Program-made: the position numbers and the translations under genes
Part shown: positions 34,681 through 44,352 of the stretch, piece by piece
Position numbering within the stretch: the stretch's first letter is position 1
Layout of the letters: the number at the start of each line of letters is the position of its first letter
NCBI GenBank assembly: GCA_023409735.1
Contig: JAEYRB010000010.1
Span: 153,404 to 217,403, forward strand
Source of the DNA: Bacillota bacterium
Lineage (GTDB): Bacteria > Bacillota > Clostridia > Acetivibrionales > DTU013
Length of the DNA: 64,000 nt
Direction: 5' to 3'
Notes under the pieces: generated by a model
What the model saw: the letters and a program-made list of their open reading frames with translations, nothing else
What the model was told of the DNA's origin: nothing
Database searches by the model: none

Positions 34681-35171
34681 AAAGCAGTGATTTTTTATTA
34701 AAACGATCCTTAACTTTATCGCAGGCCCCTTTCTCCGGTTCACTTGTTAATACATGTTCACGAAATGTGTCAGATCTTTTAATAGCTACGGCTTTTACAT
34801 TTTAGTTGCACTGAATAATCATAAGCTTGTATTTGGTAAGCTTTGTGGAAAGTAATATTTACGAAGCTCGTAAACGCATTCGGCAGCTAAATATTGAAGA
34901 AGGTACGAAAGGGAAAATATTCAATATATAAAGCTTTGCCATATATTTATGAACAGGAAGGATAATACAATTGATCAAAAACTTCCTTATTCCTTATTGA
35001 AGGTGCAAGTGAAGATATAGCAATAATCATACTGAGCTACTTTTTTCGGCTCGTCAAGCAACTGGTCCGGAGGATATAATAATATTTTTTCTGTGTTGGA
35101 TGCATAAGCAAGAAGATTGATGCCAATCTGGTCTTGAATGCTTGTTTCTTTCAATACTCCGCTGCAGGTAT

Positions 35172-36068
35172 TTATGGAGAAGGAGTAGGTTTCCCATACG
35201 GCAGTAATCCCCTTATGTGAGCATGCATCTCATCAAATTTACTTGTGCGTATTTGAATGCGTTTCCCGATGCGAGCTGCAAGGTTATATGCAAAGTCTTT
35301 ACAAGCATCCTTGTTATACAGTTGTATGGTGCTCAAATGCATCACATCAAGGCCTTGCCTCTCAAGAATTGATGATCGCATAGTATCCTTACCCTGTTCC
35401 AATGGTGTGTTATGAAAAGCAAAGCTATCATATTCAACTGCCACTTTTGCTTGCCTATAATATAGATCAGCAAAGCAGCGATATTGCCCAAGCTGTGCTT
35501 GCGCATCATCTTTTAAAATTATCTCATAATTAAATGCTACACCGTTAAGCCCATATCCACCTAGAGCATAGGGCAATGCAAGAACCATATAAGAAAGCGA
35601 TTCCATGATCGATGCGGAGCCGTTTTCTATATACTTTACTGCTCGTATGGCTTTGCGATGCCCTCGATGCCATGCGGCTCTTGAAAGAAATGTAGTGAGC
35701 TTTTGTTTTGTTGTGATTGCTGCAGCAGGGACTCCGGGAGGATGTGCACATAATTGCAGACCCAGCAGAATTAGCCTGTGAATATCTAATTTGAATGCAA
35801 GCTCAAGGAATAGAAGCTCGGGTGATGCGACCTTTTTACCATCTTGGGTTTTTACAGCACCTGCTGGTAGAGGAATTTCACACGAGTGGGCAATCTTTCC
35901 ATTAGTACGAAATCGGTCAACACGCTTAGAAACCGAAATATCTATTGAATCGGTCTCTTTAACCTTATCATTAAGAATAGTGTCGATATTTGGAATGTTC
36001 CACATTGTGGCAGCAGTGTAATAACTAAAATAACCAATCATGTAATAATTATACATTTTATCGCACAA
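35172..36068 (-). CDS. hypothetical protein with a C-terminal DUF559/Vsr-like endonuclease-fold domain
   Basis: VASPELLFLELA... and C-terminal VAVEYDSFAFHNTPLEQGKDTMRSSILERQGLDVMHLS resemble the EYDG..H....D..R...L...G motif of DUF559 proteins; no good RBS, start uncertain (TTG 36068 or ATG 36056). Confidence 0.45.
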   Translation of the reverse strand: MCDKMYNYYMIGYFSYYTAATMWNIPNIDTILNDKVKETDSIDISVSKRVDRFRTNGKIAHSCEIPLPAGAVKTQDGKKVASPELLFLELAFKLDIHRLILLGLQLCAHPPGVPAAAITTKQKLTTFLSRAAWHRGHRKAIRAVKYIENGSASIMESLSYMVLALPYALGGYGLNGVAFNYEIILKDDAQAQLGQYRCFADLYYRQAKVAVEYDSFAFHNTPLEQGKDTMRSSILERQGLDVMHLSTIQLYNKDACKDFAYNLAARIGKRIQIRTSKFDEMHAHIRGLLPYGKPTPSP

Positions 36069-36115
36069 AAATTCAAGGGGGATACCTATAATTAATAAAG
36101 TGTCAAGTGTTAGAG

Positions 36116-36439
36116 GTTACTGTTTAGACACCCTCTTTACTGGAGCTATTGTGCAATGTAAGAACACCAATAAGCGTAATGCAGCCTAGAGATATCTTGT
36201 CAGAGCGAAGATCAGCAAGTCGACTGTTTGAGGAAAAATGCTTCATCTTATTTTACTCCGAAGCATTTTTACGAGTTTCGACTTCCTAGTGCTTTTACTT
36301 TGTAAAAGCATTACATTAATGTAGCCTCTTTTTAGCGCTTGCGCTAAAAAATACTTGCTTAACTAGATAGCTCTTGCAAATGGAGCATCAGTTTCGTCAT
36401 TGTGCAATAGCTCCGTAGATTTTATGTCTGAACAGTAAC
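36116..36439. mobile_element. 324-bp MITE-like non-autonomous element with ~43-bp imperfect terminal inverted repeats and an 8-bp target-site duplication
   Basis: TGTTAGAG at 36108-36115 and 36440-36447 directly flanks GTTACTGTTTAGACA...GGAGCTATTGTGCAATG (left) and CATTGTGCAATAGCTCC...TGTCTGAACAGTAAC (right); no ORF; three perfect internal hairpins. Confidence 0.6.
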
Positions 36440-36641
36440 TGTTAGAGCATAAAGATGTGCAAAAATACAAGTATGGTGTAAATTATTAAATATAATGGAA
36501 ATTATAGGGCGTAAATGAGCAGAATTTCAAGTACGGTGCAGATGTATAGGCGAAAACTAATGTTTCATGCGGTAATTAATGAAATAATTCTATGCTTTGA
36601 ACGATAATGGCAAGTGTTATGTAAACAATGGTAGCAAATGC

Positions 36642-36719
36642 TGTTCCGTAGTTGAAAAACTGCACAAAAACTTGCGATTTTTCTAAAGACGTGTTCCGTA
36701 GTTGAAAAACTGCACAAAA
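36642..36719. repeat. exact 28-nt direct repeat x2, period 50
   Basis: TGTTCCGTAGTTGAAAAACTGCACAAAA at 36642-36669 and 36692-36719. Confidence 0.9.
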
Positions 36720-37012
36720 TACTGAAAATTTACAAGAATTGTTCAGATATTTATTATATAGAACTAGCAAATACTCATTGGGTAGCGGTACTATGTATTT
36801 AGTTGACTCATGTCTTGACGAATTTCAAAATCTAATCGACAATATGAGTAACCGCCAATTCATAAAGTAGAGAACTACTGATATACAACGGCGAATTAAT
36901 GGAGCTAAGAGTTATAGTGAATAGTTCCTAATACTTAACGACGAATTGGGATCAAGTATAGGTATTATAAGAAGTAGAATTAATATTGAAAAAAGTGTGT
37001 AGGGATAAAAAA

Positions 37013-37513
37013 ATGAAAAATTTATATATTGTCGGCGGCACAATGGGTGTTGGAAAGACGACCACATGTCGGATACTTAAAGCTAAATTACATAACAGCG
37101 TTTTCCTTGATGGCGACTGGTGCTGGGACATGGAACCTTTTCAGGTAACAAATGAAACCAAGGCCATGGTGATGGATAATATTTGTCACTTGCTTAACAA
37201 CTTTATACGCTGCTCAGCATATGATAATATAATTTTCTGTTGGGTCATGCATGAGCAGGCAATTATTGACGATATTATATCAAGGCTTGACACTAGAGGC
37301 TGTTCCATAAGAAAAGTATCCTTGATCTGCAGTAGAGAGTCGCTCATTTGCAGGCTGAAAAAGGACGTGCGGGCTGGCCTAAGAAAAGAGGATGTAATTG
37401 AAAGAAGCCTCGCAAGAATTCCGCTTTACTATGCTTTGAACACTCAAAAAATTGATGTATCAAATATTACCCCTGAGCAGGCAGCACAAAAAATTATGGG
37501 AATATGTGACTAG
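37013..37513 (+). CDS. P-loop NTPase / small-molecule-kinase-like protein
   Basis: MKNLYIVGGTMGVGKTTT Walker A at the N-terminus; ~166 aa; ATG 37013 (track ORF starts at TTG 36986). Confidence 0.6.
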   Translation: MKNLYIVGGTMGVGKTTTCRILKAKLHNSVFLDGDWCWDMEPFQVTNETKAMVMDNICHLLNNFIRCSAYDNIIFCWVMHEQAIIDDIISRLDTRGCSIRKVSLICSRESLICRLKKDVRAGLRKEDVIERSLARIPLYYALNTQKIDVSNITPEQAAQKIMGICD

Positions 37514-37625
37514 GATAAGCAGCTCGGCTAAATGTACCGTTTCAATGGCGATAATACCATCTCCGCGGCGATAATAACTTGTGAGAATCTTTATAGAATT
37601 GTTGATAAAAATATTTAATCGTGGA

Positions 37626-37889
37626 TTATTTTCCACAGCCCAGACTAACAGCCCAGTTTACATGTTTGCTGCGACAATCTTTATAGTCACAGTCTGTAAG
37701 CATGTGAGTGACTGAAGCTTTAACCTCACCAGAACTACGTGCAAATGGTCGTCTGGTACCAGCTGCAAGCAGTTTGTTAATAAGTTTCTGAAGTAATTCT
37801 TTAGGTAATGTTTGAAGTAGTCCTTTATCCTTCGGGGATGACTGTTTGTGTGAATTATCGATGTGATTATTACAGCATGCAGAAGGCAT
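37626..37889 (-). CDS. hypothetical Cys-rich 87-aa ORF (doubtful)
   Basis: Open frame only; no Shine-Dalgarno upstream and no recognisable family. Confidence 0.25.
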   Translation of the reverse strand: MPSACCNNHIDNSHKQSSPKDKGLLQTLPKELLQKLINKLLAAGTRRPFARSSGEVKASVTHMLTDCDYKDCRSKHVNWAVSLGCGK

Positions 37890-38289
37890 ACGAAGCTTTA
37901 TGCAGGGGGAATTGCTACATGCCTGTAGAATATCCGCAGAAAATATATCTTAAAACCAAGGTTGAGGGAAGCATTACGCTTAGATAATACGAATAACATT
38001 ACTAGCGGGATTATTACTGTAAAGTAAAAAAATAGGACTGTAAAAGCCGACATTGCCGTTGGAGAGAAATCTGTTTTTCAAACCGCTGACAGCAAAAAGT
38101 TATTCTTAAAAATTAATCTTGACAGCATACAAAATATAGTAAAGTATATAATCATATGTCGGCTAATAACAAGGGGTCTAAAAGTACCTTATGTTAATGT
38201 TATATGGTTGATATTATTTCACTTAATGGTTGATATTATTTCACATACAGGATGAACATTAAATTCATCAGAAAGCTTGGGGTGCCAAA

Positions 38290-44234: not shown

Positions 44235-44316
44235 AAAATCCCCTCAATCCAATAAAAGTCTCTGGGGCATCGAACCCCCATCGCCTTTTTGCTGTAGACC
44301 TTTGGTCAACGCCATT

Positions 44317-44352
44317 AAAAAAAGGCGCTCCTCTAAAAAGAAAAGCGCCTTT
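44317..44352 (-). terminator. intrinsic terminator located in the 5' upstream region of the long asparagine synthase gene
   Basis: Minus strand AAGGCGCT-14 nt-AGCGCCTT followed by T7; about 80 nt upstream of the ATG. Confidence 0.7.

Follow-up and report, generated by a model that had tools for sequence, protein, structure and literature searches.

A stretch of 64,000 nucleotides from a Bacillota genome (hereafter the window; contig C10:153404-217403 of an assembly of 3.76 Mb, 64 contigs and 40% G+C) was found to carry, at positions 36116-36439, a 324-bp element that is one copy of a non-autonomous transposable element of the miniature inverted-repeat type (MITE), with 8-bp target duplications, and whose interior is a fold kept by compensatory changes. 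The element has the features of a MITE, being small, devoid of an internal transposase gene, bounded by terminal inverted repeats, flanked by a duplication of fixed length and present in multiple dispersed copies, and its fold is selected on the + strand, including in individual copies after their insertion. Judging from the contexts and patterns of change described below, we consider it rather probable that the element is co-transcribed with its neighbours, and that its rod-like interior works in cis as a module for the processing, stability or protein binding of RNA.

A preliminary description of the window, made from its sequence alone, had proposed that this element is a MITE or, alternatively, that its long-range pairing defines a structured RNA. 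The first proposal was borne out by the further copies that we detected in this genome and in other genera, by the 8-bp duplications that flank them, by an interrupted argG-argH spacer and by a paralogous unfilled site in a relative. Matches to the element in the genome numbered 16 by BLAST and 26 by nhmmer, and the genome holds ~7 long copies and ~12 short or partial ones. Five further long copies are 86-95% identical to the window element; the full copies lie on contigs C54 (95%), C52 (90%), C47 (89%) and C23 (86%), the copy on C19 is interrupted, and the copy on C60, of 252 bp, is devoid of the segment holding hairpins 2 and 3 of the window element. About a dozen half or mini elements were also found, including deletion derivatives of 72-171 bp that keep both repeat blocks, the mini elements of 72-87 bp (C18:210530-210602, C50:8848-8919 and C50:54665-54751) retaining these two blocks only. 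This family explains several long 'empty' intergenic regions in the annotation of this genome.

A systematic search for pairs of the terminal motifs GTTACTGTTCAGA and GTGACTATTCAGG identified ten repeat-bounded elements of 72-324 bp in the genome; the former motif, a 13-nt terminus, also bounds copies in two other genomes, and the latter ends a second subfamily in this genome. In nine of these ten, the flanking 8-mers match each other at 6 or more of 8 positions (8/8 in the window copy), as compared to ~2/8 estimated for chance at the genome's base composition, indicating insertion at a cut staggered by 8 bp. In the older copies of relatives, the 8-bp duplications are mostly decayed. We also observed in a relative a 481-bp element (L138, G008:C6:94777-95257) that has the same termini and a different interior, with an inverted core fragment (TCATTCCGCTAAAGTTTCCTTAT) following GAGCTATT, indicating that the termini mobilise other cargo too.

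The C60 copy (C60:29789-30040) sits between argG and argH, co-oriented with both, and together with one duplication accounts for 260 nt of the 329-nt spacer. The two genes are adjacent in all 24 loci examined (23 of them from relatives), with spacers of 8-360 nt, mostly below 140 nt. None of the relatives' argG-argH spacers that we examined holds the element, and in G008 and G014, the two of these relatives whose genomes have core matches elsewhere, no core match was found on the argG contigs. The assembly contains two argG genes (G000:C5:1378-2592 and C60:30068-31285, products 87% identical), which could reflect a paralogue or the 2.4% contamination reported for this genome. In two species of a neighbouring genus the element separates an HD-domain gene from a dnaE-like gene, and its right flank is homologous in both; in one of the two, the ~95-bp target region is present a second time, in tandem, and this copy is free of the element. 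Genome and metagenome contig collections, from which very close records are possibly missing, yielded no exact empty site for the window copy.

The structured RNA proposal, which is compatible with the MITE, was in turn supported by covariation. We aligned 83 distinct copies (alignment A1; six copies from this genome), and RNAalifold folded them into a rod of 51 consensus pairs in four stems, P1-P4 (Table 1), with nearly invariant internal loops between them. The core between the inner repeats measures 205-275 nt, most copies being of a short form of ~205 nt, and the long-form insert is found in 14 of the 83 copies, five of the six from this genome (the C60 copy is without it) and nine from other genomes. 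Of all paired cells (4227; 51 pairs in 83 copies), 98.5% are complementary, as compared to 28.7-45.1% when the partners are slid by 1-3 columns. Moreover, both sides have changed in 23 of the 51 pairs, against 9.5 +/- 1.5 in shuffles (none of 500 shuffles reached 23), and transitions make up 72% of the changes in paired columns and 38% in unpaired ones. In P1, both sides have changed in 7/7 pairs of helix 1 and 3/4 of helix 2 (for example, AU 51 / GC 26 and AU 50 / GC 18 / GU 13), in P2, pair 73/254 is CG 41 / UA 40 and pair 70/258 is AU 52 / GC 24, and in P3, pair 96/163 is UA 65 / CG 18. Both hairpins of the insert, read from the alignment, keep their pairing by double changes (UUUUAC/GUAAAA vs UUUUGC/GCAAAA; UAGCGC/GCGCUA vs UAACGC/GCGUUA). 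The internal loops are in turn conserved in sequence, with loops such as GTCAGAGCGAGGA nearly invariant in the 83 copies and GUCAGAGCGAGGA, CUGUYUGAGC, GCGAGUUUCG and CCGAGCUGAAC invariant. A covariance-model scan against Rfam 15 gave no match in window positions 35000-38000 (E <= 1) or in four related loci (E <= 0.1). A retron non-coding RNA, a single-strand origin of the ssoA type and a 6S-like RNA were weighed on architecture only and set aside, there being no reverse transcriptase (RT) gene, plasmid context or Rfam match.

To determine which strand folds, we counted changes by parsimony on a FastTree tree. Among the changes of Watson-Crick pairs, 73 led to G·U and 19 to A·C (binomial p = 1e-8), and since an A·C pair on one strand is a G·U pair on the other, this excess marks the + strand as the folded one. 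The same directional transitions in unpaired columns numbered 190 to 147 (Fisher p = 6e-5 vs paired columns), and mutation bias therefore does not explain the skew. It was also present on terminal branches alone (60 G·U to 16 A·C), indicating that individual inserted copies are filtered, not only master lineages.

We further compared copies at the same locus, downstream of an orthologous operon of an extracytoplasmic function (ECF) sigma factor and its anti-sigma factor, in three species whose sigma proteins are 88-93% identical (locus L105 of a fourth species, where the copy is upstream of the sigma gene, was left out). Between these species, identity was 92-94% in the core, 68-74% at third codon positions of the adjacent genes and 25-67% in the linkers with terminal-repeat remnants. 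The P4 loop still varies among these copies, which argues against a simple homogenisation by gene conversion.

The window copy itself largely agrees with its preliminary description (Table 1). The exact duplication at both flanks is present and the two-block terminal inverted repeat is complementary as claimed, with all three mismatches in the outer and inner repeats being G·T on the + strand. The terminal 15-mer occurs in the window only at the two element ends (0.33 expected), and the element folds at -112.2 kcal/mol on the + strand (z = -8.6 vs shuffles) and at -106.4 kcal/mol on the - strand (z = -7.1); together with the recurrence of the whole element at 86-95% identity, these values indicate that its features did not arise by chance. 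Of three hairpins described as perfect, the first and third are, whereas the second is perfect in its 9-bp core but not over its 12-nt arms. The statement that no open reading frame (ORF) lies inside was loose, as mechanically called ORFs of 40 and 46 amino acids overlap the element, though the indels and compensatory substitutions in the interior argue against coding. Two hairpins had further been read as bidirectional terminators, a reading that was not supported: we found no terminator-like sites in positions 35900-37000, and the hairpins, hairpin 1 (P4) among them, did not score. The hairpins do not combine the G+C-rich stem, short loop and unpaired U run of a terminator; the loop of hairpin 1 is 15 nt, and in the consensus fold the runs of A and T that adjoin hairpins 1 and 3 are paired to one another. 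The element lies in an intergenic region between divergent genes, with a promoter-like site of the - strand DUF559-like gene ~40 bp away.

Table 1. Parts of the element and its flanking genes, in window coordinates.
Feature	Position	Strand	Description
Target-site duplication, left	36108..36115		TGTTAGAG, exact repeat of 36440-36447
Terminal inverted repeat, left	36116..36130	+	GTTACTGTTTAGACA; 14/15 complementary to 36425-36439; presumed transposase recognition end
Inner inverted repeat	36142-36158 / 36398-36414	+	15/17 complementary
Folded core, long form	36142..36414	+	273 nt; rod-like, closed by inner inverted repeat
P1 5' arm	36143..36154	+	pairs with 36402-36413; inside inner inverted repeat 36142-36158 / 36398-36414
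P2 5' arm	36188..36203	+	pairs with 36358-36374; helix 7, 13 pairs
P3 5' arm (GCAAGTCGA)	36215..36223	+	pairs with 36278-36286; helix 9
P4 apical hairpin (AAAAATGCTTC ... GAAGCATTTTT)	36232..36272	+	helix 11 conserved; 15-nt loop varies between copies
Hairpin 1	36234-36244 / 36260-36270	+	11-nt arms, perfect
Long-form insert, ~70 nt	36287..36356	+	two extra hairpins, 36287-36313 and 36329-36350
Hairpin 2	36287-36298 / 36302-36313	+	11/12 over 12-nt arms; 9-bp core TGCTTTTAC/GTAAAAGCA perfect
Hairpin 3	36329-36338 / 36341-36350	+	10-nt arms, perfect
Terminal inverted repeat, right	36425..36439	+	TGTCTGAACAGTAAC
Target-site duplication, right	36440..36447		TGTTAGAG, exact
DUF559-like gene (weak)	35172-36068	-	flank of element
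AAA_18 P-loop gene	36986-37513	+	other flank of element

With regard to neighbouring genes, copies between co-directional genes were found 36 times in sense and 15 times in antisense orientation (p = 0.005), and a further 12 copies lie between divergent and three between convergent genes. In the explanation we favour, the element was inserted by a cut that leaves the 8-bp duplications, presumably made by an enzyme that recognises the terminal inverted repeats (13-15 nt) in trans, and the interior rod, P1-P4 with its conserved internal loops, is kept by selection on the + strand. The element would be read as RNA through co-transcription with neighbouring genes, as suggested by its location mostly between co-directional genes in sense, for example in the argG-argH operon spacer. 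The rod would then act in cis as a structured 3'-untranslated region or intercistronic module, possibly as a determinant of processing, stability or protein binding. That the rod works as RNA rather than as single-stranded DNA, and that its role is cis-regulatory, is what we infer from these patterns.

Several observations weigh against this explanation. Regarding mobilisation, a cognate insertion sequence (IS) was looked for, and we found no transposase gene with matching ends in this genome or in three relatives. The genome has a single transposase gene each of the IS66, ISL3 and IS256 families, all of which duplicate 8 bp on insertion, and their loci gave no match to the MITE termini at up to 3 mismatches in 13; Pfam searches of this genome for DDE_Tnp_1, rve, IS1595, IS6 and DUF772 gave no match either. 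We detected neither a conserved promoter nor a conserved terminator within the element. Two consensus pairs are disrupted in the window copy, 36201/36360 (C·T, in P2) and 36216/36285 (C·C, in P3), indicating that not every copy is maintained; this copy may be decaying. The linkers of the same-locus copies are more diverged than silent sites, and these copies could represent repeated insertion into one hot spot instead of one old insertion. Similarly, the two elements in the spacer between the HD-domain and dnaE-like genes are in opposite orientations (L029:1418-1663 in G008 and L037:1417-1659 in G019), which suggests either inversion in place via their own inverted repeats or repeated hot-spot insertion. 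Lastly, Firmicute genes are mostly co-oriented with replication, such that the sense orientation also puts the + strand on the lagging-strand template and a bias in orientation fails to tell RNA and single-stranded DNA apart; in DNA hairpins, too, the mismatch that disturbs least is G·T; and as the copies are related and not independent, all p-values given here are optimistic.

The search for a partner transposase gave the following further results. Fuzzy searches for the two terminal motifs detected no pairs of termini 1-5 kb apart that enclose a transposase gene, the sole 1.6-kb pair (C47:54372-56006) being a chance match inside a glycosidase-like gene. Self-BLAST of the genome revealed no multi-copy IS, only repeated segments without an intact transposase gene, two of which (C11:23568-24132 and C29:1952-2519) carry ISL3-transposase fragments. 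The inverted repeats around the IS256 gene are clear and those around the IS66 gene tentative, both unlike the MITE termini, and no clear ends were defined for the ISL3 gene. None of the half-elements adjoins a transposase gene. The terminal repeats and fixed duplications point to a DDE-type transposase, which would act in trans, and this partner may be missing from the draft assemblies; draft metagenome-assembled genomes (MAGs) often lack their IS copies.

We then examined how widely the core is distributed, using a 29-nt pattern from it to scan a single genome of each species. At least 99 stretches were found in other genomes, from ~12 Clostridia MAG species mostly named from digester samples, and the core is present in at least 12 Clostridia species overall. 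Carriers include Hungateiclostridiaceae UBA3934, Thermoclostridium sp., Clostridiales DTU069 and DTU070, as well as the AS06, AS02 and AS09 isolates, OH_CBB_153, OH_CDB_9 and SMAG_U7118. In the order of the window genome, 10 of 149 genomes carry the core: the window's own, 8 of the 37 other same-family genomes searched, and one from another family. The species richest in copies were not recovered by the order search and thus belong either elsewhere than in this order or to genomes beyond the sample. Such a patchy distribution is as expected for a mobile element, and the family could serve as a marker for horizontal exchange among the carrier lineages. A search for transfer vectors found the core absent from IMG/VR viral contigs, PLSDB plasmids and INPHARED phages, and no protein families (RT or transposase, for example) recur beside it, the only recurrent contexts being orthologous housekeeping ones. 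Between genera, the core is kept at ~80% identity with its stems compensated.

The core is flanked in three ways: by the terminal repeats, by the arms of a GC-rich palindromic repeat, or by further cores in tandem arrays. The arrays were observed in Clostridiales DTU070 (L122:3957-4936, with 4.3 units of period 225, 81% matching; also L088, L098, L064, L071, L042 and L131), and have spacers of only ~20 nt and no outer terminal repeats. In four closely related MAG species, the core lies between complementary arms of the palindromic repeat (..GTCGCCCGTCGTCACCGAAAGCACCCGAGCCACCCGCTG / CCGCGGGTCCTGGTTCGGGTGTTTCG..GGGCGAC), which is itself repeated and modular and has no Rfam match (L090:3720-4235, L054, L057, L059, L048, L072 and L125); in L090, the ~500-bp composite lies between copies of a 13-nt direct repeat, CACCCGCTGGTT.

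These three vehicles (the MITE with 8-bp duplications, the GC-rich palindromic repeat and the tandem arrays) raise a broader possibility, which we put forward tentatively: the core may be a structured RNA module of a class not described before, on which purifying selection acts at scattered chromosomal sites. It would be a mobile RNA with a cis-regulatory or protein-binding role, carried between Clostridia lineages by at least three vehicles, and its invariant loops would form a specific binding or catalytic site.

A different view, which we regard as unlikely, is that the element is a purely selfish MITE whose fold serves its mobilisation as single-stranded DNA, for example by recognition of a hairpin or cruciform formed on the lagging-strand template, or as a folded transposition intermediate, with no RNA function in the host. 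Covariation and an excess of G·T over A·C are equally expected of a folded DNA strand, in Firmicutes a copy in sense is also one on the lagging-strand template, the mini derivatives retain exactly the two repeat blocks, and the decay in the window copy and the patchy distribution fit this view as well. Yet duplications of fixed length together with terminal inverted repeats mark double-strand DDE transposition, whereas known single-strand transposons (IS200/IS605 and the REPINs moved by RAYT enzymes) make no duplications; with its 8-bp duplications the element thus differs from the IS200/IS605, PATE and REPIN types (HUH transposase genes were not searched for). Furthermore, the asymmetry persists on terminal branches, and at the same locus the cores have stayed conserved (92-94%) while the terminal repeats decayed, the opposite of what selection for mobility only predicts.

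It is more doubtful still that the core is a free-standing gene of a trans-acting non-coding RNA, a new small or protein-binding RNA spread by several vehicles with the MITE ends being incidental. One core with three kinds of flanks (including the arrays of period ~225), the near-invariance of its internal loops and the lack of a matching Rfam family would all suit such a gene, but the core has no conserved promoter or terminator beside it, the array spacers are only ~20 nt, its copy number is high and variable with many copies truncated or deleted, and most genomes of the family and order lack it. Little credence can likewise be given to a functionless fold, with complementarity arising by template-switch correction of quasi-palindromes or by gene conversion and conservation reflecting recent bursts of copying: a long imperfect palindrome is a substrate for template switching, the copies within the genome are young (86-95% identical) and the same-locus linkers look unrelated, consistent with independent recent insertions, yet template switching is symmetric for G·T and A·C whereas the counts are 73 to 19 (190 to 147 in unpaired columns), the unpaired internal loops are the most conserved part while the P4 loop is free, a pattern of selection and not of homogenisation, and the core stays ~80% identical between genera with compensated stems.

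Two other repeats were observed along the way. The first, of ~62 nt (AAGTCTCGGGGGCATCGAGCCCC..TTTTTGCTGTAGACC..CAACGCCATTA), is much more abundant than the MITE, with ~100 BLAST matches in the genome, about half of which cover most of the unit. It is found in the window at 44256-44317, at C19:27788-27851, C18:135453-135490 and C11:21136-21191, on C28 just downstream of 35959 (~35960-36010, read by eye), and head-to-tail at C24:21921-22048, C32:6-131 and C36:50453-50575. Two MITE copies carry it as an insertion at one and the same point, directly after GTGCAA of the left P1 arm, and two further copies of it adjoin truncated MITE fragments. The second consists of two ~30-nt direct repeats (GTTCCGTAGTTGAAAAACTGCACAAAA), 50 nt apart, at window positions 36638-36720, between the element and the AAA_18 gene, which may serve as a site where a regulator binds or belong to a wider repeat set in the window.

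The present family is distinguished by a core of up to 275 nt, an unusually clean covariation, a measurable strand asymmetry and a conservation above that of neighbouring silent sites, and its hosts are poorly studied, thermophilic, biomass-degrading Clostridia of digesters. The alignment and consensus structure are ready for a new RNA family model, and the argG-argH copy offers a natural test case for a mobile RNA module altering the expression of an operon.

Elements of related kinds are known in other bacteria. REPINs are REP doublets mobilised by RAYT enzymes, hairpin-forming pairs whose arms stay complementary. They are moved by HUH single-strand transposases, make no target duplication and are much shorter, unlike the present element with its 8-bp duplications. 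The bcr1 repeat of the Bacillus cereus group, reportedly described by Okstad 2004 and Klevan 2007, is ~155 bp long, has direct repeats of 5 bp and folds as a two-stem-loop cruciform, whereas the present element has 250-324 bp, 8-bp duplications and a single four-stem rod; the two were compared by description, and the present hosts are thermophilic anaerobic Clostridia. At the same time, bcr1 is likewise a MITE-like intergenic repeat of Firmicutes with short flanking direct repeats, a distribution that varies between strains and a compensated fold, and it is transcribed, with its RNA structure kept through compensatory changes (PMC3184786). The ERIC/IRU elements of Enterobacteriaceae and Yersinia are also imperfect palindromes in transcribed intergenic regions, with terminal repeats, target duplications and longer or shorter forms made by internal indels. 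Their RNA hairpin modulates the decay of upstream mRNA (PMC3184786). ERIC is ~127 bp long, duplicates TA and belongs to Proteobacteria, while the present family duplicates 8 bp (as shown in this genome's copies) and occurs in several Clostridia lineages. The Correia elements of Neisseria (CREE/nemis) are abundant MITEs that form long RNA hairpins when co-transcribed and affect the expression of neighbours and mRNA processing, and no conserved interior comparable to that of the present element is reported for them in the cited review (PMC3184786); they measure 104-157 bp, duplicate TA and have 26-bp terminal repeats with promoter elements and an IHF site. Thus, by analogy, the element appears to work like bcr1, ERIC and Correia, without being a sequence member of any described family that could be tested; its family appears to be undescribed so far, while MITEs with a compensated RNA fold are already known as a kind.

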